Shown here in pieces: positions 1-64,000 of a stretch of 64,000 bases of DNA; positions within the stretch are counted from its first letter, which is position 1, and every line of letters begins with the position of its first letter. The notes under the pieces were generated by a model that saw only the letters and a list, made by a program, of their open reading frames with translations, had not been told where the DNA came from and made no database searches. The DNA comes from a virus (Duplodnaviria; Caudoviricetes), in IMG/VR virus record IMGVR_UViG_3300033066_002392, positions 5,121 to 69,120 of that record; one strand, given 5' to 3'. The position numbers and the translations under genes were made by a program.

Positions 1-1115
1 TCGGCCCAGCCGGCATTTCGCTGAGCCTCGTCCAGCCACGCCGTGCGGTTGTCGCCGCCCGGGAATGTGGTGCGGCGCGGGTCCTGGGGCGCCTCGCCGG
101 CGTACGTGTAGCCGCCGTACCTCTCGATCGTCTGGTAGGCCCGGCGCACGAGGCCCGAGTGCTCGCCGGTGAACGGGCGGCGGTGGCGGGCCGCCGTCCG
201 CCAGTCCTGGTAGGCGGGCAGGTCCTGGAGCTCGCGGAACCTTTTGCGGGCCTGCGCGGCGGCCGCCTCCACCTCGGCGCCGTGCTCGGCGTCCAGCTTC
301 CGCATCCGCGACTCGTAGACGTGCCTCCAGTAGCCGATCTTCTTGGCGGTCGCCTCTCCCCTGCCGGCCGAGGCCACCAGGTCGGCGCAGGCCGCCTTGA
401 AGGCCCTGGTGAGCTTGTCCTTCTCGCGGGTGGCGTGGGCCAGGGCCAGGCCCCGGGCGCGCATGGCGGCGGCCTCGATCTCCATCACGGACGCCAGGAA
501 CTTGCGGGCCGCCTCCCCGTCTGCCACCTCCTGGTGGCCCCCGCCGCCCCGCTTGATGAAGTCCTCCTTGGCCTGGGACATCCTCCGGCGGGCGTCGTTC
601 TCGCCCTCGATCTCCGCCATGGCGCGGCGCACGGCGGGGTCGGCGGACCACAGGCCGGTGCGCACCACCACCTCGGCCGTCTGCTCGAAGGTGAGCCGGC
701 GCAGGGGCGCGTGCCTCTCGCGCACGGCCGTCAGGGCCGAGACGAATGCCCGGCTCTGCAGGTATTTCTTGCCGAACTTTTGCTCCACCGCCTTCCGCCG
801 CCTCTGCACCTCCCCCGGCGTGGCGCCCCTGTCCTCGCCGGCCAGGCCGAGCTCCCCGATGGCCCGGTCGACGGCCGACGGCTCCGACTGCGGGGCGTCG
901 GCCAGCCGCCTCGCCTCCCTGATGATCTGCTCGTCGCTGAACTTCGCGAGCCACTTCCCCTTGTCGGTGCGCGGGCCCACGACGGCGGCCAGCACCTGGG
1001 CCCCGCTCATGCCCTGCCGCAGCGCGGCCTCGATGGCCGGGCGCCGGAAGATGCCCGTGCGCCAGGGCGGGGCGTGCAGGCGGGCGACGGTCTCGATGGC
1101 GGAGGCGAGGTTCAT
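1..1115 (-). CDS. Hypothetical protein, >371 aa, truncated by the window edge (absent from the ORF track)
   Basis: Manual translation from ATG at 1115 (MNLASAIETVARLHAPPWRTG...) is open to position 1, with GC3-rich codons; the + strand ORFs here are shadows. Confidence 0.75.
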   Translation of the reverse strand, partial: MNLASAIETVARLHAPPWRTGIFRRPAIEAALRQGMSGAQVLAAVVGPRTDKGKWLAKFSDEQIIREARRLADAPQSEPSAVDRAIGELGLAGEDRGATPGEVQRRRKAVEQKFGKKYLQSRAFVSALTAVRERHAPLRRLTFEQTAEVVVRTGLWSADPAVRRAMAEIEGENDARRRMSQAKEDFIKRGGGGHQEVADGEAARKFLASVMEIEAAAMRARGLALAHATREKDKLTRAFKAACADLVASAGRGEATAKKIGYWRHVYESRMRKLDAEHGAEVEAAAAQARKRFRELQDLPAYQDWRTAARHRRPFTGEHSGLVRRAYQTIERYGGYTYAGEAPQDPRRTTFPGGDNRTAWLDEAQRNAGWA

Positions 1116-1262
1116 GCGGTTTGACGCCGGGGAGGGGATTGGTGGTGAGGGCGGCCATCCTCCCCCGGCGCCCGACTAGGCTCAACCGGCGCCCCTTGCA
1201 CACATCTCTCGGCGCGGCCACCCTGGCCCCTCGTTCGCACCGCACCCCCACGCCGGGAATAC

Positions 1263-2696
1263 ATGCCAGGCCGCCTCACCCGCTTCGCCGACTGGCTCGC
1301 CGAGAAGGCGCTGCCGGCGCTCCTCCGCCCGCGGTGGGGCGCCCGCCGCGCCCTGGCCGAGTTCACGGGCACGGGCAACTCCGTGGGCCAGTGGACCAAC
1401 CAGTGGACGGAGTCGCGCTACCACCAGGTGCGCCACTTCAAGCACTGGGTCTACATCGCCGTCGACCGCGTCGCCACCGAGGTGGCGATGCACATGCCCA
1501 ACGTCTCCCTCCTCCACGAGGACGGCGGGAGCGACCCCACGCGGAAGTACCTGGGCCGTAGCGTCACCAACCGCGCCATCACGCCGCTGCAGTCGCACGA
1601 GCGCCTCGAGCCGGCCCGGCACAACCACCCCCTGTGCCGGCTGCTCCGCGACCCCAACGAGCCGGACACCAGCTACGACTTGTGGTACGAGACCACCATG
1701 TTCCTGCTCCTCACCGGGAGCGCGTACTGGTGGATCCCCCGCAACCCGCACACGCAGAAGCCCGCCGCCATCTGGGTGATGCCCTCGCACTGGGTCTACT
1801 CCCAGGCCAACGAGGACGGCTGGGTCGACAAGTACGAGATCCGCCCCGTCGAGGGCAACTACGTCCGGATGGTGATCCCCGCCGAGGACATGATTCACTT
1901 CCGGAAGAAGTCCCCCGTCTCCAAGCTCGACGGCTACTCGCCGCTCAACGCCGGGGCGCAGTGGGTGGACACCCTGGAGTCGATCGACCGCACCCGCTGG
2001 TTCTCCTTCAGGAACGGCATCTTCCCCGGCGTCTCCGTCGAGTTCGACCCGCAGGTGAAGCTCCCCGACGAGCAGGACCTGAACCGCATCGAGGCGCGCC
2101 TGATGTCGCGCTACGGCGGCGAGCACAACTCCAACCGGCCCATCATGATCCCCCCCGGCGCCAAGCTGCGGAAGATGCAGCTCTCCGCCGACGAGCTGGG
2201 CTTCTACGACTCGGCCAACCAGCTGCGCGACAACGTGCTGGCCAACTTCCACGTCCCCGGGCCCTGCGTGGGCGTGGTGAGCGACATGACGTTCGGCAGC
2301 CTGCGGGCCAGCATGGCGGGCCTGTACACGGGCGCCATCAACCCGCTCTTCCACTTCTACGGGCAGAACGTCACCGAGAAGCTGGCCCAGCCCCGCTACG
2401 ACCGCCGCCTGCGCGTCTGGTGGGAGGACCGGACGCCCGCCGACCCGGAGCTCCGGGAGACGTCGCTGATGACGGACCTGGCCTACGGCGCGAAGACCAT
2501 GAACGAGGTGCGGGCGCTGCGCGGCGACGAGCCGTACCCCCACGCCTGGGCGAACGAGCCCTGGATGCCCATGAACACGGTCCCCGTGTCCGTGGCGCTT
2601 GCGGGGCTTTCAGGCAAGGAGGGCGGCGGGGGCTCCCCCGGCGCCAACCGCGAGACGGTCACCGACCCCTCCAACCACCCCCGCCGCGAGGACTGA
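1263..2696 (+). CDS. Phage portal protein (HK97 family)
   Basis: Portal-like segments (DMIHFRKKSPVSKLDGYSPL, FSFRNGIFPG, ILANFHVP-like, TMNEVRALRG); lies directly upstream of protease and capsid. Confidence 0.9.
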   Translation: MPGRLTRFADWLAEKALPALLRPRWGARRALAEFTGTGNSVGQWTNQWTESRYHQVRHFKHWVYIAVDRVATEVAMHMPNVSLLHEDGGSDPTRKYLGRSVTNRAITPLQSHERLEPARHNHPLCRLLRDPNEPDTSYDLWYETTMFLLLTGSAYWWIPRNPHTQKPAAIWVMPSHWVYSQANEDGWVDKYEIRPVEGNYVRMVIPAEDMIHFRKKSPVSKLDGYSPLNAGAQWVDTLESIDRTRWFSFRNGIFPGVSVEFDPQVKLPDEQDLNRIEARLMSRYGGEHNSNRPIMIPPGAKLRKMQLSADELGFYDSANQLRDNVLANFHVPGPCVGVVSDMTFGSLRASMAGLYTGAINPLFHFYGQNVTEKLAQPRYDRRLRVWWEDRTPADPELRETSLMTDLAYGAKTMNEVRALRGDEPYPHAWANEPWMPMNTVPVSVALAGLSGKEGGGGSPGANRETVTDPSNHPRRED

Positions 2697-2697
2697 C

Positions 2698-5600
2698 GTG
2701 ACGACGGTGAAAGAATACTCGGCGGGCGACCTCTACGGGGCCGTCTCCCGCCGCTTCGACAGGCTCTCCGGCACCCTCGGCAACCCGCTCTCCGCCTCGA
2801 TGCGGAGGCTGGCGCTGCCCGCCGGGGACGGCCGCACCCTCACCCTCTCCAACCCCCCCGACGCGGGCACGGTGGACGTGGGCGACGGCCTGCTGGCCGT
2901 GGACGAAAAGACGATGTCGGCCGGCTTCGTGGTCTCCTCGACCCGGCGCGACCGCCACGGCGACGTGGTGGTGCCCGCGGGGTGCAAGGACTTCTTCGCC
3001 GACTACGAGGCCAACCCCGTCGTCTTCTTCGCCCACAAGAGCGACTGCCTCCCCATCGCCTCCGCCAGGGACGCCGCGGGCAAGGTGGCGATGTGGTTCT
3101 CCGAGGACAAGATAACCTCCCGCGCCTACTTCCACGGGAAGACGCGGGAGAGCGAGGAAGTCTTCTGCCTGGTGGCCGAGGGCCACCTGCGCGCGGCCAG
3201 CATCGGCTTCATCCCCGTCGAGGGGAAACTCATCCCCCCGGCGTCCGACGAGCCCGTCGACGACGACGGCAACGTCGACTTCGACTCCGGCGGCCTGGTG
3301 TTCACGAAGTGGCAGCTCCTGGAGTGGAGCGTCGTCCCCGTGCCCGCCAACGCCGACGCCCTGCGCTCCCGCCTGCAGTCGAGGAAAAGTCTTTCCCCCT
3401 CCCTCCGGAAGTCGCTGGAGCCCTTCGCGGCCCCCGCCCGCGGCGACCGCCCGCGGTTCACGATGCCCAAGCACGCGGGCCTGGCGGCGCAGGGGCGGCG
3501 CTGGAACCAGTCGCTGTCGAAGGCGTTCGACATCTCCCAGCAGAAGCTGAAGCCCGCCACGGCGTTCTACGGCCTGGCGTCGAAGTACCTCGGCTGCGAG
3601 GTGAAGCACATCTCCCACCGCTCCGCCGTCATCCCCTCTGCGAAGATGGGCTCCGTGCTCTCCGGCTGGCACGAGGCGGCCGCCCTGGACCACAAGTCGG
3701 TGGACGTCCGCAACATCACGCACGGCGGCACGGAGTGCCCGCCCTACTACGAGGCCATCCGGCTCAACTCCTCCCAGTCGAAGGAGTTCCTGGTGGAGGG
3801 CGCGGTCTTCTACGACGGCAAGTCGAAGTTCATCGCCGCCTTCCAGCCGGTGTGGTACGGACTCAGCGTCACCCTCTACTCGAAGCAGAGCGAGTCGGCC
3901 GACTCCTCCCTGGTGCTGGACAGGGCCTGGGAGCTGGCGGCGTCGAAGTACAACTTCCTCAAGGGCGAGGCCTTCTCCCTCTCCGGCGACTTCATCGGGA
4001 AGACCGGCGAGCAGTGGGAGGACCTGTTCCTCGAGGACAAGAACGTCAAGTCGGTTAAGCGCACCCTGCGGCTCCTCAACGAGAAGCAGGCGGACTTCGC
4101 CAACCGCGGCGCCATCTTCCTCGGGCCGCCCGGCACCGGCAAGACGCTCTCCGGGCGCATCATCCGCAACCAGGCCGACGCCACCTTCATCTGGGTCTCG
4201 GCCAAGGACTTCTACCGCGCCGGCGCCTTCGGCGGCATGTCGTACGCCTTCGAGCTCGCCAAGGAGCTGTCGCCCAGCGTCATCTTCTTCGAGGACGTCG
4301 ACAACTGGCTGGACAGCCACAGCGTGGACCTCCTCAAGAGCGAGATGGACGGCATCGCCCGCTACTCCGGCGTGTGGACGGTGCTCACCACAAACTACCC
4401 CGAGCGGCTGCCCAAGGCGCTCATCGACCGCCCCGGCCGCTTCCACGACGTCCTCTACTTCAAGCTGCCCGACGAGGCGGCCCGCAAGGGCATGCTCGCC
4501 AGGTGGCTGCCGGAGCTGAAGGGCCAGCCCCTCGCCGACGCCCTCAAGGCCACCAAGGGCTACAGCGGCGCCCACGTCTACGAGCTGTGCAAGTTCGTCA
4601 AGACGCTGCTGGAGCAGGAGGAGAAGTCCCTCGAGGCCGCGGTCACCTCCGCACTCAAGAAGATCGAGGAGCAGCGGGAGCTGATCGCCAGGCCGCCGCG
4701 CTTCGACAAGTCCCTCAGCCCCATGGTGGCCTCCTACGCGGGCCGCCGCAGTTTCAACATCCAACGGAAATCCATGCCCACCGACATAGGCGAAGCCCTC
4801 GAAAAACTCCTCGCCGACGACCTCACGAAGCCCCCCGTCCAGGACGCGGAAGACGCCGGGGGGAGTGAAGAGGGTGAGGGCGGCGTCGAGCCGCAGGCGA
4901 TCGTCTTCCACACCGACCGCTTCCACGAGGAGGCCGACGTCCGCCGGTGGCTGGAGGACAACGGCTACCCGGACGCCGAGGTGATGCCCGGCGGCGAGGG
5001 CGACGAGCCCTGGGTGGCCGTGCTGTTCCCGAGCGAGGAGTGCGAGGCCGACACCGCCGAGCGCAAGGAAATCGAGGACGGCGTCGAACTGGTGACCTGC
5101 ACCCGCGGCGAGAAGGAAGGCGACGGCGAGAGCGAACCCGAACCCGAATCCGGCGTGCCCGACGCCGGGGGAGAAGTGATGGCCGGCAAGGCGATGGACG
5201 AACTGCCCGATGGCGAGACCGCCGTGAAGCCAGGTGGGGAGTCCGACGACTCCATGAAGCCCTACGGCTGCCAGGTGCTGTGCACCCTGCAGGGGCACCT
5301 CGAGGCGACCGCTTCTTACCTCGAGTCGGCCGTCGGCCAGCTGGAGCAGGAGAAGGTCAAAAAGTGGCTCGGCAAGTACACCGAGCACCTGCAGAAGTAC
5401 GCCGACGACCTCGAGGAGTTCGCCTGCGGCGTCTACCCGGACCACTTCAAGGCGAAGGCCAAGAAGAAGAAGCCCGCCAAGGAGGAGCACCCCGAGCCCG
5501 ACGGCGACGAGGCCGTCGGCGACGGCGACGGGGACGCCGACGACAAGGGCAAGGGCAAGAAGTCAATCACCTCCCCCCGGCGTACCCCCCTCGCCAAGGG

Positions 5601-5871
5601 CGCCGTCGCCCGCAAGGACGTCGGCGTGCTCGAGGACACCGCGGAGTTCCTCAAGGAGCTGGCCACCGAGGACAACCTCAAGCGCTCCCAGAAGGCCGCC
5701 TGCCGCCAGCACGCCGGCGACATCGGCTCGCTGTGCCAGAAGTACTCCGCCCCCGAGGACGCCGGGGAGGAGGTGGCGACGGAGAAGTCGGCCGCCGAGG
5801 ACCCCGCCCTCCAGGTGGCCGTCGACCGCCTCCTCAACGCCTACTACGAGCTCACCGGGGAGGAAATCTAA
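2698..5871 (+). CDS. Prohead maturation protease fused to an AAA+ ATPase and an acidic/helical scaffold-like C-terminus
   Basis: N-terminal HK97 protease motifs (RDRHGDVV, NPVVFFAH, LRAASIGF, LLEWSVVPVPANADA); Walker A GPPGTGKT at 4123-4146; Walker B VIFFEDVD; SRH TTNYPERLPKALIDRPGRFH; GTG start just after the portal stop. Confidence 0.85.
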   Translation: MTTVKEYSAGDLYGAVSRRFDRLSGTLGNPLSASMRRLALPAGDGRTLTLSNPPDAGTVDVGDGLLAVDEKTMSAGFVVSSTRRDRHGDVVVPAGCKDFFADYEANPVVFFAHKSDCLPIASARDAAGKVAMWFSEDKITSRAYFHGKTRESEEVFCLVAEGHLRAASIGFIPVEGKLIPPASDEPVDDDGNVDFDSGGLVFTKWQLLEWSVVPVPANADALRSRLQSRKSLSPSLRKSLEPFAAPARGDRPRFTMPKHAGLAAQGRRWNQSLSKAFDISQQKLKPATAFYGLASKYLGCEVKHISHRSAVIPSAKMGSVLSGWHEAAALDHKSVDVRNITHGGTECPPYYEAIRLNSSQSKEFLVEGAVFYDGKSKFIAAFQPVWYGLSVTLYSKQSESADSSLVLDRAWELAASKYNFLKGEAFSLSGDFIGKTGEQWEDLFLEDKNVKSVKRTLRLLNEKQADFANRGAIFLGPPGTGKTLSGRIIRNQADATFIWVSAKDFYRAGAFGGMSYAFELAKELSPSVIFFEDVDNWLDSHSVDLLKSEMDGIARYSGVWTVLTTNYPERLPKALIDRPGRFHDVLYFKLPDEAARKGMLARWLPELKGQPLADALKATKGYSGAHVYELCKFVKTLLEQEEKSLEAAVTSALKKIEEQRELIARPPRFDKSLSPMVASYAGRRSFNIQRKSMPTDIGEALEKLLADDLTKPPVQDAEDAGGSEEGEGGVEPQAIVFHTDRFHEEADVRRWLEDNGYPDAEVMPGGEGDEPWVAVLFPSEECEADTAERKEIEDGVELVTCTRGEKEGDGESEPEPESGVPDAGGEVMAGKAMDELPDGETAVKPGGESDDSMKPYGCQVLCTLQGHLEATASYLESAVGQLEQEKVKKWLGKYTEHLQKYADDLEEFACGVYPDHFKAKAKKKKPAKEEHPEPDGDEAVGDGDGDADDKGKGKKSITSPRRTPLAKGAVARKDVGVLEDTAEFLKELATEDNLKRSQKAACRQHAGDIGSLCQKYSAPEDAGEEVATEKSAAEDPALQVAVDRLLNAYYELTGEEI

Positions 5872-6135
5872 GTGGCCAAGTCGAAGCCCTCTGCCACCTC
5901 CCCGGCGTCCAAGGTTGAACTCCCCGCCGCGCCCGTTGCGGCGGAGGTGCCGGCCCCGGCCTGCTGGAACTGCCGGCACTGGCTCGCCGTCCGCGACGCC
6001 TGCCACCCGGGCGTCGGCCACTGCAGGCGCTACCCGCCCTCGGTGCTCACGCCCGACTTGACACTACACGGGCCCAAAACTACCTTCCCCGTCACCCACC
6101 AGTCCGCCTCCTGCGGCGAGCACGCGCCGGCGTGA
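5872..6135 (+). CDS. Small Cys-rich phage protein (CxxC...CRRYPP...CGE)
   Basis: ORF fills the gap between protease and capsid; Cys pattern suggests metal binding. Confidence 0.6.
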   Translation: MAKSKPSATSPASKVELPAAPVAAEVPAPACWNCRHWLAVRDACHPGVGHCRRYPPSVLTPDLTLHGPKTTFPVTHQSASCGEHAPA

Positions 6136-6182
6136 CATCCGCCTCACCTCCCCGTCCAACACCCTCCCCCAGTAAGAGCCGA

Positions 6183-7559
6183 ATGTCCACCCCCACCAAT
6201 CTCGCCGACAAGGTCGAAAAGCTCGAAGGCGCCCTCACCAAGCTGGCCACCTCGGGTGACGCCGTGCGCAAGGGCGTCCCCGCCGTCCGCAAGGGCGAGG
6301 ACCCGTTCACCTCCCGCGGCTACAGCTTCTGCAAGCTGTTCCAGCTGATGAGCGGCAAGGTGGACAAGGAGAGCGCCCGCGTCGAGTTCGACACGCACAA
6401 CGAGCTGCAGGCGAACCTCTACGACCGCCACGGCTTCGTCAAGGGCGCCAGCAACTCCATCCTCGCCCCGTTCTGCACCGACTACATGCCGCAGGACAGC
6501 GAGTCCGACCGCAAGTTCGCGCTCGACGTCCGCGCCCGGGTGAAGGCCGGCGTGGCGGGCCTGGACCCCGAGGCCGTCCGCAAGATGGCCGGGGCCGTCA
6601 ACAAGACGCTCAGCTGGCAGGACGAGACGGCGCTCGGCGCCCTGGTCTCCCCGCCGATGTTCGGCGAGTTGATTGACATCCTCCGCAACAACGAAGTGCT
6701 CCTGCGGGCCGGCGCCTCCAGCATCGGCATGCCGCCCAACGGCCGCATCGTCTTCCCCCGCCAGACGGGCGTCGCCACCGCCTACCACGTCGGCGAGAGC
6801 GCGGCGATCACCGCCAGCGAGCCGACGACCGGCGACGTGACGCTGCAGGCCAAGAAGCTGGCCACGCTGGTGAAGGCGCCCAACGAACTCTTCCGCTACG
6901 CCTCGGTCTCCGTCGAAGCGCTCCTGCGCATGGACATGGCCAAGGTGATGGCGCTGAAGATGGACAACCAGCTCATCGAGGGCGTCGGCAGCTCGGTCGC
7001 CCCGCGCGGCCTCATCACCTACTCCGGCCTCACCACCCACACCTCCGCCGGCACCCCCGCCGACGCCGACAGCGGCTACCCGCTGCAGCCGGAGGACGTG
7101 TACACGATGATCGCCAAGGTGGAGGAGCAGAACGCCGTCTTCAAGACCTGGGTGATGCGGCCCCTGATGTACTCCTACATCTTCAACCGCCGGGCCGACG
7201 CCATCACGGCGGGCGACGGCAAGGGCGCGTACCTCTTCAACGTGTGGCGCGAGCTCGGCCTCAACGCCGGCCTCGACCGCGACGGCACCGGCAACCTGGC
7301 CGGCTACCCCGTGCTGAAGACGACCAACATCTCCAAGACCCGCACCCGCGGCTCGGGGAGCACGTTCACCTACATCCTCGGCGGCGACTTCAGCGACTAC
7401 ATGATCGCCATGAGCCCCGTGGTGGAGTTCGCGATGACGCAGCAGGGCGACACCGCCTTCCAGCAGGACCAGACCTGGCTGCGGGCGATCCTCAGCTACG
7501 ACGGCGCCCCGCGCCGGGAAGCGTCCTTCTTGATCTGCGACGCCTTGTTGACCTCGTGA
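6183..7559 (+). CDS. Major capsid protein (HK97 fold)
   Basis: GALVSPPMFGELIDILRN, AYHVGESAAITAS, VTLQAKKLATLVK, LAGYPVLKT, ILGGDFSDY, AFQQDQTWLR. Confidence 0.92.
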   Translation: MSTPTNLADKVEKLEGALTKLATSGDAVRKGVPAVRKGEDPFTSRGYSFCKLFQLMSGKVDKESARVEFDTHNELQANLYDRHGFVKGASNSILAPFCTDYMPQDSESDRKFALDVRARVKAGVAGLDPEAVRKMAGAVNKTLSWQDETALGALVSPPMFGELIDILRNNEVLLRAGASSIGMPPNGRIVFPRQTGVATAYHVGESAAITASEPTTGDVTLQAKKLATLVKAPNELFRYASVSVEALLRMDMAKVMALKMDNQLIEGVGSSVAPRGLITYSGLTTHTSAGTPADADSGYPLQPEDVYTMIAKVEEQNAVFKTWVMRPLMYSYIFNRRADAITAGDGKGAYLFNVWRELGLNAGLDRDGTGNLAGYPVLKTTNISKTRTRGSGSTFTYILGGDFSDYMIAMSPVVEFAMTQQGDTAFQQDQTWLRAILSYDGAPRREASFLICDALLTS

Positions 7560-7587
7560 GAGTCTTTTAGTCTCTAATTGAGGTTGG

Positions 7588-7627
7588 TTGCCACGCACCC
7601 TCCAATTCGGTATGATACTATAGTATC
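7588..7627 (+). promoter_or_regulatory. Sigma70-type promoter TTGCCA-17-TATGAT overlapped by the palindrome GATACTATAGTATC
   Basis: -35 at 7588-7593, -10 at 7611-7616, palindrome at 7614-7627; AT-rich; directly upstream of the HNH gene. Confidence 0.65.
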
Positions 7628-7636
7628 TTATTCAAC

Positions 7637-8254
7637 GTGGAGGGTGTCGTGGGAAGCAGCGATCAGCAGGTAATCGGACAACGCTTCGGGAAGTTGGTGG
7701 TCGTCGCGAAGGCCTGGTCAGACAGATGGCTTTGCCGATGCGACTGTGGGAACGAGAAGGCGATTCGGCTCGTGTATCTGAAGAAGAACATGACGAAAAG
7801 CTGCGGCTGCCTCCGAGCCAAGCATGGCCTTTCTCATCTCCCCGAGTTCAATGTCTGGAACATGATGCAGCAGCGGTGTAACAACCCGAATTACAACCGC
7901 TACTTGGACTACGGCGGCCGTGGCATCAAGGTGTGCGAGAGGTGGCTGGGGCCGAAAGGGTTCGAGCATTTTATTAGCGACCTCGGACGACGGCCCTCGC
8001 CTCAGCACAAGCTGGAGCGAATCGACAACGACGGCGACTACGCGCCCAGCAACTGCTGCTGGGTTACCCAGGCTGAGCAGTCAAGGAACCGACGCAACAA
8101 CAAGTGGGTCACCTACAACGGCGAGACACTCGTTGTCAAAGACTGGGCCACAAAGCTCGGCATGGACGTGATGACCCTGAAGTACCGTCTGAAGCACTGG
8201 GGCCTCGAGAGGGCGATGACCACGCCCCTTGCGCCCAACTCAAGGCGAAAATAA
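7637..8254 (+). CDS. Free-standing HNH-type homing endonuclease
   Basis: QRFGKLVV, CRCDCG, KSCGC, RCNNPN..YGGRGIKVCERW, ERIDNDGDYAPSNCCW; lower GC than flanking genes. Confidence 0.85.
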   Translation: MEGVVGSSDQQVIGQRFGKLVVVAKAWSDRWLCRCDCGNEKAIRLVYLKKNMTKSCGCLRAKHGLSHLPEFNVWNMMQQRCNNPNYNRYLDYGGRGIKVCERWLGPKGFEHFISDLGRRPSPQHKLERIDNDGDYAPSNCCWVTQAEQSRNRRNNKWVTYNGETLVVKDWATKLGMDVMTLKYRLKHWGLERAMTTPLAPNSRRK

Positions 8255-8294
8255 CCTCCCCCTGTTCACCTCCCCTTCGGACCCCACCTGACGC

Positions 8295-8741
8295 ATGTCC
8301 GCCACCTTCCTCACCGACCTCGAGAACGTCGCCCTCACCGGCGCCGGCCACGTACCCGGCACCACCATCTCCACCGCCACCACGACCCTGGGCACGGCGG
8401 TGGACTGCCAGGCGATGGAGGGGCCGATCTCCGGCATCTTCCTCACCGGCAACGTCGGCGACGCCACCCTCACCCTGCAGTTCAAGCTGCAGGAGAGCGA
8501 CACCTCCGGCGGCAGCTACACCGACATCGCCGACGGCGTCGGCTCCGTCAGCACCGCCAGCGCCAGCGCCAACGACAACCTGGTGACCATCATCACCGCC
8601 ACGCAGCGCACCAAGCGCTACGTCAAGACGGCCATCGTCAGCGCCGGCGGCGGCACCCTGAGTGCCCCGGTGGCCAGCGCCGTGGTCGGCCGCAAGAAGA
8701 TCGTCGGCAGCAGCACCGGCACCTACACCACGATCCCCTGA
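8295..8741 (+). CDS. Putative capsid-associated (decoration/cement-like) protein
   Basis: Beta-rich 148-aa ORF following the capsid gene and preceding a terminator; function inferred from position only. Confidence 0.5.
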   Translation: MSATFLTDLENVALTGAGHVPGTTISTATTTLGTAVDCQAMEGPISGIFLTGNVGDATLTLQFKLQESDTSGGSYTDIADGVGSVSTASASANDNLVTIITATQRTKRYVKTAIVSAGGGTLSAPVASAVVGRKKIVGSSTGTYTTIP

Positions 8742-8760
8742 TCCCGGCCGCAACCACTTC

Positions 8761-8815
8761 GCCCCGCACGGCGCGCCACGCCCTCCCCTCCCCGGCGCGC
8801 CTGCGGGGCTTTTCT
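8761..8815 (+). terminator. Rho-independent terminator
   Basis: GCCCCGCA..GGCGCGCC / GGCGCGCC.TGCGGGGC stem followed by TTTTCT. Confidence 0.7.
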
Positions 8816-8843
8816 CTCGCCCCGCCACCCGGTACCGCACGAC

Positions 8844-53692: not shown

Positions 53693-53791
53693 TTCAATCA
53701 ACTGAACCGCTGGCAACACCCGCAGGGCGGCGTGGCGGAGACGCCCGCAGCCCCCGTAACCACTCTTCCCCCGGCGCCCTGGGAGGCCGTC

Positions 53792-54208: not shown

Positions 54209-54233
54209 CACTCCCCGGCGGAACACCCCCACC

Positions 54234-56663: not shown

Positions 56664-56664
56664 A

Positions 56665-59040
56665 GTGACGCGGCACAAGGTCATCGAGCTGAGCAACGGC
56701 AACCGCTACCACTACCAGCTGCCCTGGGACGGCCGCACCAGGCTGCGCGGCACCCTCGAGTGCGCAATAGCCTTCGACACCGAGACCGAGGCCCTAAGCG
56801 ACGCGGACCTCAACCGCAACCTGTCGATACCCCGGGTGGCCCTGGCGACGGTGAGCACCGGCTCGCACTCCTACTTCCTCCACCCGTCGCAGCTGGCCGA
56901 CTGGGTCCTCCTGCACAGGGGGGAGCACCTCGTCGGCCAGAACGTCCGCTTCGACTTCTGGGTGGTGGACCAGTACCTGCGCGCCGCCGGGCGCCCGGAC
57001 GCCGTGGAGGCGTGGTGGCAGTTCCCGACGGAGCACCGCCTCCACGACACGCTGCTGCTGGACCAGCTCATCCGCCTCGGCCAGGGCGTGGGCACCGCCG
57101 TCTACTCCAAGGACGACTCCTCCCTCTCCCGGCGTGATCTGGGGGCGATCGCCCGCGACTACGTGGGCGTGGACGTCGACAAGAGCGACCCGTACCGCAT
57201 GCGCTACGGCGAACTACTGGGGGTGCCCGCCTCCGACTGGGCCTCGTGCGAGCAGGGCTTCTTCGACTACGCCATCGTCGACGCCGTGGTGACGTACCTC
57301 GTCTACAAGCGGCAGGCGAAGGTAGCGGGCGACCTGATGCGGAAGTGCCGCTCGCACGCGCCGAGGGACATCGCCTGGCAGGCGGAGCGGAAGTACGGCT
57401 ACCTCACCGAGGCGCTGCAGACGGCGGGCACCCTGGCCCTGGCCCACATGTCGCGGCGCGGCATCCGCACCAGCCCCGACAAGGTGGCCGCGTACGAGGC
57501 CTGCGTCCGTGCCGACATGGAGCGCCACCTCGAGGAGATGATGCGGCGCAACCCGGAGGTCTTCATCTACCGGGACCAGTGCACGCCGAAGGGGGCCCTC
57601 AGCAAGCGGAAGAACAGGCAGCCGCCCCTCCCCGGCGTCAGGCGCGAGGTGATGCTGACGCCGAAGGGGAAGACGCCCCGCCTGCGCCAGCCGGAGCTGC
57701 GCGACGCCCTGGAGAAGATCGCCGCGCGGCTCGGCGTGCCCCCGGTACTCTCGGACGGCAAGAAGGGCGGCACCTCCCTCAGCGCCAAGGCCTGGGCGGT
57801 GCACGCCGGCCGCGACAGCTTCATCCGGGAGTGGTCGTCGGTGACGAAGAAGGCGAAGCTCCTCAGCTTCTTCGACCTGTTTCGCGAGTCCAGCGTCATC
57901 CACGCCACCTACAACCCGCTGATGCGCACCGGCCGCGTCTCCGCCTGCCGCCCCAACATCACCCAGGCGCCCAGGGACAAGGACTTCCGGGGGCTATTCG
58001 TCGCCCGCGACAGGCACCTGCTGTACACGGTGGACTACTCCTTCATCGAGCTCCGGGCGATGGCGGCCATCTGCACCGCCAGGTTCGGCAGGAGCGTGCT
58101 CGCCGACGTCATCAAGGCCGGCAAGGACCCGCACTCCTACACCACCTCCCTCATCATGGGGGTGCCCTACGCCGACGTACTCGCCGGCCTCGCGGCCGAG
58201 AAGGCCGCAATCAAGGCCGCCGAGAAGCAAGGACTACCTCCCCCGGCGTCCCCCTTCACCGCCGGCCGGCAGTCCGCGAAGGCGGTCGGCTTCGGACTAA
58301 TCGGAGGGCTAGGCTCTGTGAAGCTGGCGGCCTACGCCAAGGCCAGCTACGGGGTTGACATGACGGTGGAGGAGGCGGCGGCCCTGCGGCACAAGATGAT
58401 CACGGAGGTGTACCCCGAGTTCGGCACCTACCTGGCCGACTCCTCCCTCTTCAACATGTGCTTCTCCCTCGGCGTCACGGAGCGCGCCGTCTGCCGAGCC
58501 TTCGACATCCCACTCGGCGACGCGGAGAAGCTGCAGCGGGCCACGCGGGCGGCGTCCAAGGTCCTCCGGGGCGAGCCCTTCAAGGCGGACGGCACGCCGT
58601 ACAAGGAGGCCTTCGTCAACCGCACCTGGGAGGCGTGCAGGAGGCTGGCCTCCTCCGCGAGCCGCCTCGACTCCTCGATACGCGAGGCGCTGCGCCAGGA
58701 GGTCCCCTCCCCCAGGCTCGAGAAGGCCTTCTTCGGCGGCCCGGCCTTCACCCTGACGGGGAGGGTGCGCGGGGGCTGCACCTACACGCAGATTAAAAAC
58801 AGCCCCTTCCAGGGCCTGGCCGCCGACGGCGCCAAGCTGGCGCTGTGGCGCCTGCTGCGGGCCGGCTTCAGCATCATCGCCTTCATCCACGACGAGATCA
58901 TCGTCGAGCTGCCCGCGGCCACCGCAGCCGCGGACGCCCCGAGGGTGGACGCCATCCTCAACGCGGCCATGGAGGAGGTGATGCAGGGGCTGGTGCCCTC
59001 CGGCGTCGAGGGGAGGCTCGCGGAATGTTGGCAAAAGTGA
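56665..59040 (+). CDS. polA: Family A DNA polymerase with 3'-5' exonuclease domain
   Basis: AFDTET, GQNVRFD, YAIVDA; motif A VDYSFIELR; motif B RQSAKAVGFGLIGG; motif C FIHDEI. Confidence 0.95.
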   Translation: MTRHKVIELSNGNRYHYQLPWDGRTRLRGTLECAIAFDTETEALSDADLNRNLSIPRVALATVSTGSHSYFLHPSQLADWVLLHRGEHLVGQNVRFDFWVVDQYLRAAGRPDAVEAWWQFPTEHRLHDTLLLDQLIRLGQGVGTAVYSKDDSSLSRRDLGAIARDYVGVDVDKSDPYRMRYGELLGVPASDWASCEQGFFDYAIVDAVVTYLVYKRQAKVAGDLMRKCRSHAPRDIAWQAERKYGYLTEALQTAGTLALAHMSRRGIRTSPDKVAAYEACVRADMERHLEEMMRRNPEVFIYRDQCTPKGALSKRKNRQPPLPGVRREVMLTPKGKTPRLRQPELRDALEKIAARLGVPPVLSDGKKGGTSLSAKAWAVHAGRDSFIREWSSVTKKAKLLSFFDLFRESSVIHATYNPLMRTGRVSACRPNITQAPRDKDFRGLFVARDRHLLYTVDYSFIELRAMAAICTARFGRSVLADVIKAGKDPHSYTTSLIMGVPYADVLAGLAAEKAAIKAAEKQGLPPPASPFTAGRQSAKAVGFGLIGGLGSVKLAAYAKASYGVDMTVEEAAALRHKMITEVYPEFGTYLADSSLFNMCFSLGVTERAVCRAFDIPLGDAEKLQRATRAASKVLRGEPFKADGTPYKEAFVNRTWEACRRLASSASRLDSSIREALRQEVPSPRLEKAFFGGPAFTLTGRVRGGCTYTQIKNSPFQGLAADGAKLALWRLLRAGFSIIAFIHDEIIVELPAATAAADAPRVDAILNAAMEEVMQGLVPSGVEGRLAECWQK

Positions 59041-59131
59041 TCACGAAGTTGGTGGGCTTTCGTGACTAATATTCGCCTTCAGTTAAAGTGGATTTATGCA
59101 ACGGGCAGTTAGGCAAACCACGGAGCAAAAC

Positions 59132-59416
59132 ATGGCGCGCAAGGCCAACCGCATGGCGACCACGAAGGACATTTTCGAGGGACTCCACAAGACGAAGGCG
59201 AGCATCGTCCGCGCCTTCAAACTCCTCGGCAAGAAGAACGGCGGCCAGGAGAAGTTCGGACCCACGGAGCTGGGCGAGGCGGCCGAGACGCCGCTGGCGC
59301 CGTCGCTGGTGTCGAGCCACCTCAAGGGCCTGGTGACGGCCGGCATCGTCGAGCGCTGCCCGCAGGGCACCCGCCGGGCGCTGTACCGCCTCGTCGAGCG
59401 CCCCGAGGCCGACTGA
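59132..59416 (+). CDS. ArsR-like winged-helix DNA-binding protein
   Basis: PTELGE..PSLVSSHLKGLVTAGIVER..RRALYRL. Confidence 0.7.
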   Translation: MARKANRMATTKDIFEGLHKTKASIVRAFKLLGKKNGGQEKFGPTELGEAAETPLAPSLVSSHLKGLVTAGIVERCPQGTRRALYRLVERPEAD

Positions 59417-59483
59417 GCCGCACGACGTTTTTCTTTTTTCTTCTCCCCCGGCGTCACCGCGATAGAGCAGCAGGAGCGAGGCC

Positions 59484-62441
59484 TTGACACCGATCGACCA
59501 GTCGCCCAGGGCGCGGGCAGTTGACATCCGGACGTACTGCCGGCCGCTGGACGCGGAGGGCTCGTCGTTCGAGACCCGCGACCAGATGCTCCGGCGCTCC
59601 ATGCTGGAGCACCACCGCCGCCTGCTGCGGGACGCCGGCAAGAAGAACCACAAGGACGAGCTCAACGAGTTCTACTCCCTCGGCGTCGAGGGCAAGGCGG
59701 CCGTGTCGGGGCGCACGCAGTGGCTGGGCGGCACGCCCTACGCCTACGACCGCGCGGCGTGCCAGTTCAACTGCAGCGCCACCATGGCCGCGACGGTCTA
59801 CGACATCGTCGACATCTCCTGGCTGCTGCTCAACGGCTGTGGCGTCGGCTTCAAGCCGGTCGTCGGCACCCTGCACGGCTACACCAGGCCGATCAACGAA
59901 CTCGAGATCGTCCCCAGCCGCAACGACAAGAACTTCCGAGGGCGCGAGCAGAACGAGGAGGAGTTGCCCTGCGAGGCCAACGACCACACCTGGACAATCC
60001 GGGTGGGCGACTCCGCCGCGGCCTGGGCCAAGGCCGGCGGGAAGATGTTTTCGCCCCGCCACGCGAAGAAGCTCCGGCTGGACTTCGGCAACGTGCGAGG
60101 CGCGGGTGGAAGACTTAAAGGATATGGCTGGGTCGCCAATGGCTATGCACCCTTCGCCAAGGCCCTGGTGGCCATCCACAACATCCTGAACGAGTCCGCC
60201 GGCAACCTGCTGGACGAGATCCAGATCATCGACGTGGTGAACTGGTGGGGCACCGTGCTCTCCTCCCGGCGCGCGGCCGAGATCGCGCTCCTGGATTTGC
60301 ACAACCCCCGGGCCGGCGAGTTCGCCCGGATGAAGCGGGAGTACTGGAAGCACAACCCCCAGCGCCGCCAGAGCAACAACACCCTGCTGGCGTGGACGAA
60401 GCCGTCTCGCGGCAGGCTCGAGGAGATCCTCCGCGAGGCCGACGAGTCCGGGGGCGACCCGGGGATCTGCAACGCCGAGGCCGCGCTGAAGAAGGCGCCC
60501 CACTTCGCGCTCTTCAACCCCTGCGTCCCCGGCTACACCCGCATCCTGACGGACAAGGGCTACGCCCGCATCGACTCGCTGGTCGGTTACCGGGTGAACG
60601 TGTGGAACGGCAAGTCGTTCGCGAGCGTGTGGCCCAAGGTGACGGGCTTCGACCAGCCGCTCGTGAAGGTGTCACTCTCCGATGGCACCTCGCTGACCTG
60701 CACCTACGCCCACAACTGGCTTGTGAACGACGGCACGTACCACAAGCCGACGGAGACCCGGAAGCAGGCGATCGAACTCCAGCCCGGTGACAGGCTGGCG
60801 AAGTATTCGATGCCGGTGGTTGAGGGCGGGGTGCCGTTCCAGCTGGCCTACACCCACGGCTTCTACTGCGGTGACGGCTTCGACTACGCGGAAGACAAGC
60901 GGGCCTGGCTCTACGGTGAGAAGACGAAGCTCGCCATGTACCTGGTCGGCGTGCACCGCTCCGACAGCGTCCCGGGCCGGACGCACGTGACCTTCCCGTC
61001 GGAGATGCCGGCGAAGTTCCACGTGCCCCACGACGCCGACCTCGCCTCGCGGCTGGACTGGTTCGCCGGGCTGCTGGACTCCGACGGCACCGTGGTGCAG
61101 AACCCCAACAGCGTCTCGCTCCAGGTCTCCAGCGTCCGGAAGGACTTCCTCGACGAGGTGCGGCTCATGCTCACCTCCCTCGGCGTCCAGGCCAAGATCG
61201 GCCTGATGTCGGAGGAGGGCGACAGGGAGATGCCCGACGGCCGGGGCGGCAAGAAGCTGTACCACTGCCAGACGAGCTACCGCCTTTGCGTCAACGCGGC
61301 GGATACCTGCCACCTGGTCGACCTCGGGCTCTCCCCCCGGCGTCTCGTGATCAACAAGAAGGCCCCCAACCGGGACGCCAGGCGGTTCGTCGAGGTGGTC
61401 TCCGTGGAGGAGGCTGGCGTCGCACCCTTCGTCTACTGCTTCACCGAGCCCCTCACCAACCGGGGGACCTTCGAGGGGATCGTCACGGGGCAGTGCGCGG
61501 AAATCCTCCTTCCGAGATCGGGGTTTTGCAATTTGGTTACACAGTGCCTCCCCAGGTTCCGGCGCAACTTCTCCGAGATGGAGCGGTCGTGCTACCTGAT
61601 GGCCAGGGCCAACTACCGCCAGACGTGCGTCAACCTCGAGGACGGTGTGCTACAGCCGGCCTGGCACCAGACGAACGAGTCGCTCCGCCTCTGCGGCGTC
61701 AGCGCCACGGGCATCGTCCAGGCCGACTGGCTCACCGACTACCAGATCCGCCGGCTCCGCAACGCGGCGGTGACGGGCGCCTACAGCATGGCTGACGAGC
61801 TCAAGATGCCCCGCCCCAAGGCCGTCACCACGGTGAAGCCCGAGGGCACCATCAGCAAGACGCTGGGCAGCCACTCGCTCGGCGAGATCGCGGAGGGCAT
61901 CCACAAGCCGCTGGGCCGGTTCATCCTGAACTGGGTGAACTTCGCTGCAGTCGACCCGCTGGTGGGCCTGCTGGAGTCGGCCGGCTACAAGACGCTGCCC
62001 AACCCCAGCGACAGCAACAACGTCCTGGTCTGCTTCCCGGTGGAGTACGACAACATCGCCTTCGACCGGGTCGACGGGAAGTACGTCAACCTCGAGCCGG
62101 CCACCGCCCAGCTGGATCGCTACCTGCGGTGGAACACGCTGTGGGCGGACCACAACGTCAGCTGCACGGTGAGCTACTCGCCGGAGGAGATACCCCAGGT
62201 CGTCGACTGGCTGGACAGGAACTGGGACTCGGGCTTCATCGCCGTCTCCTTCCTCCGGCGCAACGACCCGACGAAGACGGCCCGCGACCTGGGCCACCCC
62301 TACCTGCCGCAGGAGGTGGTGAACGAGGGCCCCTTCCGCGACTACCAGAACACGCTGCGGTCGGTGGACTGGTTGAAGGTGAGCGGCATCCACGAAATCA
62401 GCGAGGAGTCCTGCGCCACGGGGGTGTGCCCGTCGCGGTGA
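59484..62441 (+). CDS. nrdJ: Class II (adenosylcobalamin-dependent) ribonucleotide reductase containing an intein
   Basis: ACQFNC, GCGVGF, SRRAAEI, NP|CAEI, TTVKPEGT, HNVSCTV, C-terminal SCATGVCP. Confidence 0.9.
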   Translation: MTPIDQSPRARAVDIRTYCRPLDAEGSSFETRDQMLRRSMLEHHRRLLRDAGKKNHKDELNEFYSLGVEGKAAVSGRTQWLGGTPYAYDRAACQFNCSATMAATVYDIVDISWLLLNGCGVGFKPVVGTLHGYTRPINELEIVPSRNDKNFRGREQNEEELPCEANDHTWTIRVGDSAAAWAKAGGKMFSPRHAKKLRLDFGNVRGAGGRLKGYGWVANGYAPFAKALVAIHNILNESAGNLLDEIQIIDVVNWWGTVLSSRRAAEIALLDLHNPRAGEFARMKREYWKHNPQRRQSNNTLLAWTKPSRGRLEEILREADESGGDPGICNAEAALKKAPHFALFNPCVPGYTRILTDKGYARIDSLVGYRVNVWNGKSFASVWPKVTGFDQPLVKVSLSDGTSLTCTYAHNWLVNDGTYHKPTETRKQAIELQPGDRLAKYSMPVVEGGVPFQLAYTHGFYCGDGFDYAEDKRAWLYGEKTKLAMYLVGVHRSDSVPGRTHVTFPSEMPAKFHVPHDADLASRLDWFAGLLDSDGTVVQNPNSVSLQVSSVRKDFLDEVRLMLTSLGVQAKIGLMSEEGDREMPDGRGGKKLYHCQTSYRLCVNAADTCHLVDLGLSPRRLVINKKAPNRDARRFVEVVSVEEAGVAPFVYCFTEPLTNRGTFEGIVTGQCAEILLPRSGFCNLVTQCLPRFRRNFSEMERSCYLMARANYRQTCVNLEDGVLQPAWHQTNESLRLCGVSATGIVQADWLTDYQIRRLRNAAVTGAYSMADELKMPRPKAVTTVKPEGTISKTLGSHSLGEIAEGIHKPLGRFILNWVNFAAVDPLVGLLESAGYKTLPNPSDSNNVLVCFPVEYDNIAFDRVDGKYVNLEPATAQLDRYLRWNTLWADHNVSCTVSYSPEEIPQVVDWLDRNWDSGFIAVSFLRRNDPTKTARDLGHPYLPQEVVNEGPFRDYQNTLRSVDWLKVSGIHEISEESCATGVCPSR
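60522..61493 (+). mobile_element. Intein (324 aa) with LAGLIDADG-type endonuclease; C-terminal Gln
   Basis: Begins CVPGYTRILT; block B TCTYAHNW; FAGLLDSDG; block F VYCFTEP; ends TGQ followed by extein C of CAEI. Confidence 0.92.
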
Positions 62442-62844
62442 GTAAGGAGCTGAGGGGCAGGCTGGCGGCGGGCGGCCTGGGCTTCTCCCTCGGCGTGGTG
62501 CCAGCGGCCATCCTGGCGACGGCGGGCCTCGACACCTGGCTGGCGGTGCTGGGAATCCTGGTAGCCTCCCTTACGTCTGTCGTACTGCTGATCGTAACCG
62601 TCGACGTGTTAATGGCGATAACCGAGGGAAGGCCGGAGGACGATTAATGAAGGCGACGTTTTACATCAACCTGGCCTGCATGTGCATCATGTACGGCCTG
62701 GCAATGCTGGGCATGAGTTTGATGGAGTGGAGGCACACCCGGAACCAGGCCGTTTCCGGCTCGTGGATTAACGGGGTACTCTTCTTTCTGTTCCTCGGCA
62801 ACGCGTTCTGGGTGTGGGCATCTTACCAGGACAAGGGGGAGTGA
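62438..62844 (+). CDS. Two small membrane proteins (62438-62647 and 62647-62844)
   Basis: Two hydrophobic helices each; overlapping start/stop tiling. Confidence 0.65.
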
Positions 62845-62845
62845 C

Positions 62846-63280
62846 ATGGCTCTGGTACTGCAGGTGAAGAAGGTGCGGGAGAAGGCCTACCTCCCCGACA
62901 AGGCCTATGAGGGCGACGCGGGCATCGACTTCTACGCGGCCGAGGACGGCTGGCTGAAGGGCGCCGGCAACCTCATCCCCCTCGGCGTGGCACTGGCCAT
63001 CCCCGAGGGCTGGGCCCTGGTGCTCAAGGACCGCAGCGGCAACGCCGCGAAGAAGGGGCTGCGGGTGGCGGCGGGCGTCATCGACGCCGGCTACCGCGGC
63101 GAGGTCTCCTGCCTCCTCGACGTCGTCAACGACCCCGAGGGCAAGGGCGTCTACGTCACGGCGGGCGACCGGGTGTGCCAGGGCGTCCTCGTCCAGGTGC
63201 CCACCACCAGCATCTGGGAGGTGGACGAACTCCCCGGCGCGGTGCGGGGCGACGCGGGCTTCGGCAGCACGGGGGAGTAA
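62846..63280 (+). CDS. dut: Trimeric dUTPase
   Basis: AGIDF, DRSG, GVIDAGYRGE, RVCQG, RGDAGFGSTG. Confidence 0.95.
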   Translation: MALVLQVKKVREKAYLPDKAYEGDAGIDFYAAEDGWLKGAGNLIPLGVALAIPEGWALVLKDRSGNAAKKGLRVAAGVIDAGYRGEVSCLLDVVNDPEGKGVYVTAGDRVCQGVLVQVPTTSIWEVDELPGAVRGDAGFGSTGE

Positions 63281-63747
63281 TGGCACTGGTCTGCGGCATC
63301 GACATCGGCCTCGACGGCGGCGTGGCGGTCATCGACACCGCGGGCAAGATCGTCAGCGTGGACGTGATGCCGCGCACCGTCTCCCCCCACGGCAAGCACG
63401 TCGTGGACGCCGTCGGCCTCAAGAGGCTGATACCCGCCAGCTGCAGGCTGGTGGTCATCGAGTTCACCCACAGCTTCGGCCACGAATCGAGGAGCGCCTG
63501 CTTCTCCTTCGGCCGCAGCACCGGCAAGACGCAGGCGGTGCTGGAGCTGGCGGGGGTGCCCTGGGAGGAGGTGACCCCCCAGATGTGGAAGGCCGAGATC
63601 CTCGAGGGGACGAAGAAGGACAAGGCCGCGGCCATCGGCTACTGCAAGTCGAGGTGGCCGCAGTACGACATCGGCAGGCACGACGGCAAAGCGGACAGCC
63701 TATGTATGGCTGAATTCGCGAGGCGGCGACTGGTCGGCAACAAGTAG
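63280..63747 (+). CDS. RuvC-like Holliday junction resolvase
   Basis: CGIDIG, VIE, FSFG, VTPQMWK, DGKADSL. Confidence 0.85.
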   Translation: MALVCGIDIGLDGGVAVIDTAGKIVSVDVMPRTVSPHGKHVVDAVGLKRLIPASCRLVVIEFTHSFGHESRSACFSFGRSTGKTQAVLELAGVPWEEVTPQMWKAEILEGTKKDKAAAIGYCKSRWPQYDIGRHDGKADSLCMAEFARRRLVGNK

Positions 63748-63758
63748 GGAGCGCATCG

Positions 63759-64000
63759 ATGCCTATCTCGGTTGACGGCGTGGTGAAGAGCGGCGGGCGG
63801 TACCACGTCCGCCCCATCGACGGCGACGGCGGCTGGCTGTTCGTCCAGCTCCTCGACGGCCGCGCGGACGGCATGAAGAACTTCAAAGTTACGGCAGACC
63901 AGCTGCGGGCGTTGGCCTCCGCCGCGGACGCCATCACGGGCAACTTCGAGCTGGTGTCTCCCGGCATCTCCCCCGGCGTCTTCGAGCCGGTCACGGCCAG
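63759..64000 (+). CDS. Hypothetical protein, truncated by the window edge
   Basis: ATG at 63759 is open to the window end (MPISVDGVVKSGG...). Confidence 0.55.
   Translation, partial: MPISVDGVVKSGGRYHVRPIDGDGGWLFVQLLDGRADGMKNFKVTADQLRALASAADAITGNFELVSPGISPGVFEPVTA

Follow-up and report, generated by a model that had tools for sequence, protein, structure and literature searches.

A single nine-base word, CCCCGGCGT, recurs throughout a 64,000-nucleotide stretch of phage DNA, hereafter the window, which covers bases 5121-69120 of the 69,120-bp IMG/VR virus record IMGVR_UViG_3300033066_002392. What keeps so many copies in place, and what would read them, is the question that this locus raises. 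Dense genome-wide words have so far been of two kinds: those by which a bacterial machine reads its own chromosome, namely Chi, FtsK orienting polar sequences (KOPS) and uptake sequences, and the host Chi word as copied by phages. Here, CCCCGGCGT is described as a word that appears to be private to a phage of the Gemmata-type planctomycetes, a host group that has received little study, and that is strong enough to bend the phage proteome. Record-wide counts below refer to all 69,120 bp, including the 5,120 bases to the left of the window; the record is classed as linear and is ~52% complete according to CheckV.

Enrichment and extent of the word

The window contains 75 exact copies of CCCCGGCGT (51 on the + strand and 24 on the - strand), the first at 813-821 and the last at 63971-63979, and the whole record contains 82 (55+/27-), a density of 1.19 per kb or about one per 850 bases, roughly 20 times chance. 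Dinucleotide shuffles of the window gave an expectation of 2.95 copies and a maximum of 7, while a third-order Markov model of the record predicted 5.0 (-log10 P = 67); on the same Markov score the top words of control phage contigs and of 69-kb host chunks reached only ~6-8. CCCCGGCGT is the commonest 9-mer of the record and ranks first among 504 words of identical composition, the other 503 of which average 4.3 copies. The excess is genuine and holds against all of the nulls tried, in agreement with an initial annotation made from the sequence alone, whose hand count of ~49 + and ~18 - copies gave the right bias and order of magnitude, if not the actual numbers. The variable run of C described there was also recovered, with a length of 4 in 39 copies, 5 in 32, 6 in 9 and 7 in 2. 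In a full-text literature search, CCCCGGCGT turned up only in primers and in unrelated contexts.

All nine core positions are sharply fixed: the 27 single-base variants sum to 154 copies against 82 perfect ones, and most of them are present in 0-7 copies, the exceptions being CCTCGGCGT (22) and CCCCGGCGC (17). Positions -6 to -1 before the word are 71-94% pyrimidine and position +9 after it is C in 59 of the 82 copies, giving an extended consensus of YYYYYY-CCCCGGCGT-C. Conservation is limited to ~16 nt and, because it stops there, the word is neither a mobile element nor a repeated piece of a gene. By analogy, its specificity profile resembles that of a protein site.

Maintenance at the DNA level

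Most copies (66 of the 82) lie inside open reading frames (ORFs), which were called by G+C content at third codon positions (GC3) and cover 88% of the record; the remaining 16 are intergenic and include those at 11845, 17407, 53554 and 59446. As reported initially, every reading frame is used as well as the gaps: sense phases 2, 1 and 0 hold 18, 11 and 3 copies, and antisense phases 1, 0 and 2 hold 19, 12 and 3. The two rare phases, with three copies each, would place T, or the complementary A, at the third codon position in a genome with a GC3 of ~95%, so the word has been placed where codon usage permits. Synonymous-codon shuffling within genes, chosen beforehand as the test on which selection at the DNA level could fail, left ~13 genic copies against the 66 observed, and shuffling of codon order left ~4. 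Maintenance of the word at the DNA level is thus supported by its survival of codon-preserving nulls, by the occupation of all frames and spacers, and by a shift in tripeptide usage.

That shift is pronounced. The two tripeptides with the greatest enrichment in the proteome are TPG, seen 21 times where 6.4 were expected, and PGV, seen 25 times where 8.4 were expected; DAG follows closely, with 30 against 12.1, and the three excesses are 2.5-3.3-fold, whereas the reversed control tripeptides GPT, VGP and GAD occur only 5-6 times each. PRR and RRG, the tripeptides of the disfavoured phases, show no excess over their reverses. CCCCGGCGT has altered the phage proteome, and the same tripeptide footprint was reported for bacterial uptake sequences by Findlay and Redfield (PMC2817400).

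Frequency in host-group genomes and searches of other phages

The word is ordinary in the host group. Within the Gemmata-type family to which the phage is assigned (see below), the 9-mer reaches at most 0.12 per kb in 151 genomes, compared with 1.19 per kb in the phage, and the 11-mer YCCCCGGCGTC is at or below 0.029 per kb in all 252 genomes, compared with 0.75 per kb; across 401 genomes sampled from the whole phylum the 11-mer stays at or below 0.041 per kb. In 400 kb of a 72% G+C family genome (G084) the 9-mer occurs 21 times on + and 25 times on - and ranks 106 of 504 composition-matched words, and it ranks 83 of 504 in 400 kb of the densest family genome (G123); neither stretch shows strand skew or a pyrimidine flank. 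As a special word, CCCCGGCGT is phage-specific and absent from the 653 host-group genomes searched. Equal frequency in planctomycete DNA, which the initial annotation had named as an outcome that would count against it, was not found and the enrichment in the phage stands, but the Chi, KOPS and uptake analogies drawn alongside lose their footing, since they need a host genome carrying the word, and its level is no more than ordinary in every one of the 252 family genomes and 401 phylum genomes searched.

Beyond bacterial chromosomes, megablast against GenBank phages gave no match, nor did a search of IMG/VR with the primase-helicase and a tail protein, nor a plasmid search. Capsid searches of GTDB genomes, IMG/VR and Joint Genome Institute (JGI) metagenomes found only capsids that are 42-62% identical; most of them belong to low-GC phages, and the word is missing in every case. 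When IMG/VR was scanned with a 14-mer, the matches listed were single chance hits; in the best match listed (G001, 157 kb, 22 copies) collagen-like repeats predominate and CCCCGGCGT ranks 241. Other phage-like metagenome contigs that encode RKLRLFACAC-family homologues lack the word, and five related prophage-like islands in family genomes (G009, G029, G111, G130 and G183) resemble the phage solely in the protease and capsid or in a handful of structural genes, with no enriched word. The two public sequencing runs that contain the phage, of which X1 is probably the source sample, yielded contigs of the same strain, X2 at low depth and with no informative variants.

A different word is abundant in another contig. 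L007, a phage-like NCBI metagenome contig of 59% G+C with an RKLRLFACAC-family gene, contains GGCGGGGGC nine times in 20 kb against 0.5 expected, and this may be the private word of another phage.

Orientation, spacing and map of copies

The record has four gene blocks, namely a short minus block on the left, a plus structural block, a long minus early block and a second plus block. The copies of CCCCGGCGT are distributed over them as follows (window coordinates; each copy is given by its first base).

813-63979, both strands: whole array, 75 exact copies; seven more lie in the 5,120 bases to the left of the window
813-5908: left segment, orientation balanced; + copies at 813, 2024, 3236, 5575 and 5900; - copies at 1124, 1948, 4853, 5162 and 5759
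1948-1956 (-) and 2024-2032 (+): inverted pair in a 1.2-kb stretch without a confident ORF; long hairpin predicted
5909-11844: motif-free stretch, covering the major capsid and 991-residue head-module genes
6132-7559: major capsid gene
8844-11819: gene for the 991-residue head-module protein
11845-11853, +: intergenic copy between the 991-residue ORF and the following + ORF
12392-28059, +: copies in the structural/lysis plus block at 14212, 14437, 15451, 16286, 16408, 17407 (intergenic), 18807, 19412, 19689, 19908, 24375, 26372 and 27951
12392-28059, -: copies in the structural/lysis plus block at 12392, 15480, 18773, 20671, 26589 and 28051
15451-15488: close inverted pair (+ then -) within ORF 15158-15826
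18773-18815: close inverted pair (- then +), 25 nt apart, within ORF 18697-19017; 10-bp GC stem predicted
28749-51557, +: 22 copies in the minus early block at 28749, 30391, 31029, 31369, 31844, 33092, 33180, 33839, 34709, 36648, 37818, 38360, 39233, 41746, 42604, 44253, 45949, 47582, 50510, 50761, 51316 and 51549
28749-51557, -: 12 copies in the minus early block at 30479, 30728, 33604, 36378, 39139, 39218, 42467, 44613, 45316, 46948, 48478 and 49463
37818-37826, +: copy near a gene start; its complement, GGGGAGGG, precedes by ~9 nt what is probably the true start of the RKLRLFACAC-family gene (database form 270 residues)
39218-39241: tightest inverted pair (- then +), 6 nt apart; perfect 10-bp stem
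50510-50518, +: copy in an AT-rich symmetric intergenic element (50274-50671)
50510-63979: right-hand segment; + copies listed are 50510, 50761, 51316, 51549, 52724, 52834, 53554, 54944, 55040, 57630, 58241, 59446, 61335 and 63971; - copy at 53165

The + share of CCCCGGCGT in the record is 67%. Composition-matched words lie on + in 57% of cases (p = 0.075 against the word), and a + share of 61-64% is predicted by Markov models of order 2 and 3 that were trained on the + strand after masking of the motif (p = 0.26-0.65); the window is 68% G+C, and C exceeds G on its + strand throughout, regardless of gene direction. Counts in plus-gene blocks (28+/11-) and minus-gene blocks (27+/16-) are similar (Fisher p = 0.48), 32 copies are sense and 34 antisense relative to transcription, and the cumulative orientation curve over the record has no turning point. 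The polarity of CCCCGGCGT is no property separate from the C-rich composition of the + strand. It had been noted correctly that the + excess persists in the minus-strand gene block (22+/12- in the window), but the polar signal for a DNA-tracking machine that was proposed from it is not supported: the ~2:1 bias equals that expected from the base composition of the strands, no switch point is present and the copies are spaced much as if at random. Similarly, the match to the KOPS consensus GGGNAGGG, ascribed to many copies, is found in only 19 of 82 (23%).

The coefficient of variation of spacing is 0.88 on +, 0.73 on - and 1.13 for all copies, the - strand being slightly even (p = 0.07), and neither regular spacing nor strand alternation was seen in the record. 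A gap the size of the largest motif-free stretch, 5.9 kb, arises in ~5% of random placements. Only the right-hand 13.5 kb has near-uniform orientation. All five neighbour pairs that are no more than 40 nt apart are inverted and able to form GC-rich hairpins, and two of the five, both to the left of the window, come just after a stop codon.

The part of the record outside the window begins with an ORF-free 0.9 kb (L001, record bases 1-938) that holds two motif hairpins, at 544-582 and 887-929. Each is followed by the repeat GT(G/T)AGTCAGAA, and the same repeat spans the stop codon of the first minus-strand gene; judged from the sequence, the hairpin and repeat units look like repeated gene-end or terminator modules. 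Double use of the word as a Shine-Dalgarno site, suggested initially for three positions, is possible for the copy at 37818, which fits, whereas 29320 and 36972 are CCC-variants rather than the 9-mer, and at most ~3 copies overall could serve in this way.

Comparison with known systems

Chi, KOPS, uptake sequences, stoperators and phage promoters each fail to match CCCCGGCGT in at least one defining feature. By analogy, the closest in behaviour would be an uptake sequence, but one that is owned by a phage. The uptake signal sequences (USS) of the Pasteurellaceae and DNA uptake sequences (DUS) of the Neisseriaceae likewise have an exact core of 9-10 nt with a weaker flank, occur about once per kb on both strands and are mostly genic, and they also share 2-3-fold enrichment of the encoded tripeptides, frames set by codon preference and inverted pairs at gene ends (PMC2817400). 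However, uptake sequences are a bacterial genome's own and are read by its competence machinery, whereas CCCCGGCGT is dense in the phage only.

Several phages accumulate the Chi word of their host. LLS carries 23 Chi sites, one per 1.86 kb and 2.5 times the host density, of which 20 have one orientation and which cluster at one end; P1 carries 50, the Pseudomonas phage MD8 has 32 versus 0 by orientation, and these Chi-rich phages are without recombination genes (Zheng et al. 2025, PMC12315714). They resemble the present phage in that one short asymmetric word is the commonest of its length, greatly exceeds chance and is selected at the level of DNA rather than codons. They differ in using the Chi of the host, at ~0.5 per kb and with 87-100% of copies in one orientation, compared with 1.2 per kb, 67% and a recombination module of the phage's own.

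Stoperators and operators of cluster A mycobacteriophages (L5 gp71, TipsytheTRex repressor) are also asymmetric sites present in many copies throughout the genome of a temperate phage (PMC9283540), and the present phage has a tyrosine integrase and a tRNA-like putative attP core to set beside its 82 copies of an asymmetric word. The repressor of cluster A mycobacteriophages is monomeric and binds more than 20 asymmetric 13-mers (PMC9283540), which is a precedent for the reader proposed below. Stoperators nevertheless amount to 20-36 sites, found at promoters and in short gaps between genes and pointing in the direction of transcription, whereas the 82 copies here are 80% genic with a sense to antisense ratio of 32:34. 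KOPS and other architecture-imparting words share with CCCCGGCGT a G-rich strand and unequal strand counts. KOPS are chromosomal, >80% skewed and switch at dif, unlike CCCCGGCGT, whose skew is that of the background, whose fit to the consensus is confined to the minority of copies given above and which is not special in host genomes. A phage RNA-polymerase promoter was rejected, with only 16 copies intergenic and few within 45 nt of a start, in both orientations.

Proposed reading and alternatives

The reading favoured here, with a confidence that falls a little short of even, is that CCCCGGCGT is an orientation-independent recognition word on duplex DNA for a phage-specific, probably phage-encoded, monomeric DNA-binding factor. 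It is favoured because the core is sharp and asymmetric, orientation is a matter of indifference, spacing is random, both strands are used and the word is private to the phage. Selection, or a drive coupled to recognition, would act on the DNA itself to keep ~82 copies in 69 kb. We infer that a sequence-specific protein would read the word in either orientation, together with its pyrimidine-rich 5' flank and 3' C, and a duplex carrying YYYYCCCCGGCGTC is the target that it should bind. The reader is proposed to be a monomer because the site is asymmetric, and it is most probably encoded by the phage, a host factor titrated or recruited by the phage being less likely.

In such a system, the many sites would mark or organise the entire phage genome. 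Possible roles include prophage-wide repression or compaction, or telling phage from host DNA in replication or packaging, and a few inverted pairs may double as hairpin terminators. A more specific proposal is that CCCCGGCGT is an identity word, a private mark of 9-16 nt read by a phage protein to tell its own DNA from that of the host for silencing, replication, packaging or protection; this is possible but less likely than not. If true, it would be a kind of self-recognition known so far only for bacterial genomes (USS and DUS) or borrowed from the host (Chi). More broadly, if a phage protein does read the word, this would represent a novel means by which a virus marks its DNA, and the word would provide a handle for finding that protein.

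Several points weigh against a duplex-binding factor of the phage. The true host may be outside the 653 genomes searched, and no close relatives in which sites and a co-varying protein could be compared were found in GenBank phages, IMG/VR, GTDB genomes or JGI metagenomes. The local polarity of the right-hand 13.5 kb (50510-63979), at 15+/1-, is unaccounted for (Fisher p = 0.016 against the rest). Candidate readers in the record are weak: a winged helix-turn-helix (HTH) protein (59096-59416) whose likeness to ArsR does not reach the cut-off, a pair of HNH_3-type endonucleases that have HTH tails, and small uncharacterised proteins, first among them those at the divergent junction 51292-52148. 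The 1310-residue protein to the left of the window is a further candidate. Finally, with the record only about half complete, the reader, the genome ends and an orientation switch may lie beyond it.

The main rival, considered unlikely, is that the copies are strand-specific enzymatic sites, serving either as strong priming sites for the DUF3854/DUF3987 Toprim-helicase or the PrimPol-PriCT protein, or as nicking sites for an HNH endonuclease, by analogy with phages whose DNA carries localised single-strand interruptions. The word together with its next base ends in GTC in 59 of 82 copies, and GTC is the trinucleotide recognised by T7 gp4, in which the 3' C is cryptic and from which a primer would start pppAC. 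Per-strand density, at one per 1.3 kb on + and one per 2.6 kb on -, is Okazaki-like; the phage encodes two primase-type proteins, a family A DNA polymerase (PolA) and two HNH endonucleases; and the slightly even spacing on the - strand and the 15+/1- right-hand segment also fit. Like CCCCGGCGT, the sites of T7 gp4-class primases and the nick motifs of T5-, tf- and phiKMV-like phages are asymmetric. Known primase sites are nevertheless only 3-5 nt long, shorter than CCCCGGCGT, and are not enriched and have no need to be, and the nick motifs of T5-like, tf-like and phiKMV-like phages are far fewer and on one strand only. CCCCGGCGT is found on both strands everywhere with no switch point, and its spacing on the + strand is random-like with a 5.9-kb gap.

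Signals read by the host, whether Chi-like or uptake-like, are together also improbable; should the word nonetheless prove to have such a role in a host yet to be sampled, planctomycetes would gain their first known signal of this type. The stronger of the two, though still quite unlikely, is that the phage has multiplied the site of a host-encoded factor. The array might soak up or recruit a host regulator or nucleoid protein, or the word might be the uptake-type self signal of a host not yet sampled. The footprint is indeed uptake-like in its density of around one copy per kb, in the flank that accompanies a 9-nt core, in the 2.5-3.3-fold enrichment of tripeptides and in frames set by codon preference (PMC2817400), and each of the five close pairs is inverted. 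By definition, however, an uptake sequence is dense in its host's own genome, and no such genome is present among the 252 and 401 searched; there is no further pointer to a host reader.

It is very unlikely that the word has no reader at all and arises from biased mutation, repair or gene conversion (for example, short-patch repair accompanying a cytosine methylase on CCGG or CCSGG) or as an artefact of codon or amino-acid usage. CCCCGGCGT does hold CCGG and CCCGG, its commonest variant, CCTCGGCGT, is what a C-to-T change of the outer C in CCGG gives, and its 3' part, CGGCGTC, is also common in host genomes. Against this, codon-preserving shuffles remove four fifths of the genic copies, and known repair drives yield an excess of ~2-fold, not 20-fold. 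No DNA methyltransferase or Vsr-like gene was found among the proteins of the record, a 16-nt extent with a pyrimidine tract is not explained by such a process, and CCTCGGCGT is itself common in the host.

Least credible is a host Chi-like hotspot accumulated by the phage against a RecBCD- or AddAB-type nuclease, as in LLS, P1 and MD8 (PMC12315714): the word is the commonest of its length as Chi is in LLS and P1, its complement is G-rich like known Chi sites and the right end is nearly uniform in orientation, but the word is unremarkable and unskewed in family genomes and dense in 0 of the 653 searched, 67% is well short of 87-100% in one orientation, the 9-mer density is ~10 times that of the richest family genome compared with 2.5 times for LLS, the phage has its own YqaJ exonuclease, RecT and RuvC-like resolvase where Chi-rich phages have no such module, and in five family genomes a RecC model found no match, with long sub-threshold AddA-like matches in two of the five.

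The phage and its likely host

The main gene blocks are recognisable by their contents.

Plus structural block: protease-AAA+ fusion, HK97-type capsid, tail proteins, M23 peptidase
Long minus early block: PrimPol-PriCT, MoxR, VWA, YqaJ exonuclease, with a tyrosine integrase on the + strand
Right plus block: RecT-like annealase, DUF3854/DUF3987 Toprim-helicase, PolA, class II ribonucleotide reductase with LAGLIDADG intein, RuvC-like resolvase

An Rfam search of the window found no family, and a PDB sequence search with either primase gave no match. Two free-standing HNH_3-type endonuclease genes are present at 34275-34784 and 49639-50325 (PHROG 59/959), one of them with a C-terminal HTH; both products are possible nickases and candidate readers of CCCCGGCGT.

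The host family was reached by way of an RKLRLFACAC-family homologue in an 11-Mb planctomycete genome (G006), whose family comprises 252 species genomes. The phage is assigned to this Gemmata-type family because of four features. First, the Gemmata-named TIGR02996 domain scores above cut-off in one phage protein. Second, a tRNA-like stretch of 45-55 nt beside the tyrosine integrase (about 35198-35275; core 35203-35250) is 93-100% identical in more than 60 family genomes and, corresponding to the T-arm and the 3' part of the acceptor, is probably the attP core; ARAGORN found no whole tRNA at this stretch. As it lies inside the called integrase ORF (35104-36399), the ORF call starts too early. 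Third, three phage genes are 64-74% identical in DNA to family genomes, namely those for a MoxR-type AAA ATPase (43143-43868), a VWA/metallopeptidase protein (40042-41106) and a 150-residue ORF (46977-47346), a likeness that indicates gene exchange between host and phage. Fourth, a homologue of the major capsid protein is present in 107 of the 252 family genomes, mostly as a single copy, with ~40% identity and E ~1e-90 (loci L143-L152 and L153-L172); they may represent prophage remnants that have been conserved or a capsid module that has been domesticated. In all 252 family genomes, a 20-kb DNA search recovered just the tRNA-like core and the three diverged genes, with no integrated copy of the phage.

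Further observations concern individual genes. In three of the prophage-like islands (G009, G130 and G183) the likeness to the phage is confined to the protease-capsid pair (2599-5871 and 6132-7559), and one family genome (G215) contains two MoxR-VWA pairs. The RKLRLFACAC-family protein (36997-37869) has thousands of homologues, and the closest of them come without exception from phage-like metagenome contigs (L006, L007, L010, L011, L129 and L131), not from cellular genomes. The largest gene of the record is a minus-strand ORF of 1310 residues (L001:2303-6235, reaching window positions 1-1115), which has a GC3 of 97% and matches no Pfam or PHROG family. The class II ribonucleotide reductase (59484-62441) is split by a LAGLIDADG-type homing endonuclease or intein domain at residues ~525-600, and a similar arrangement of reductase and intein is present in an unrelated phage-like contig, L010.

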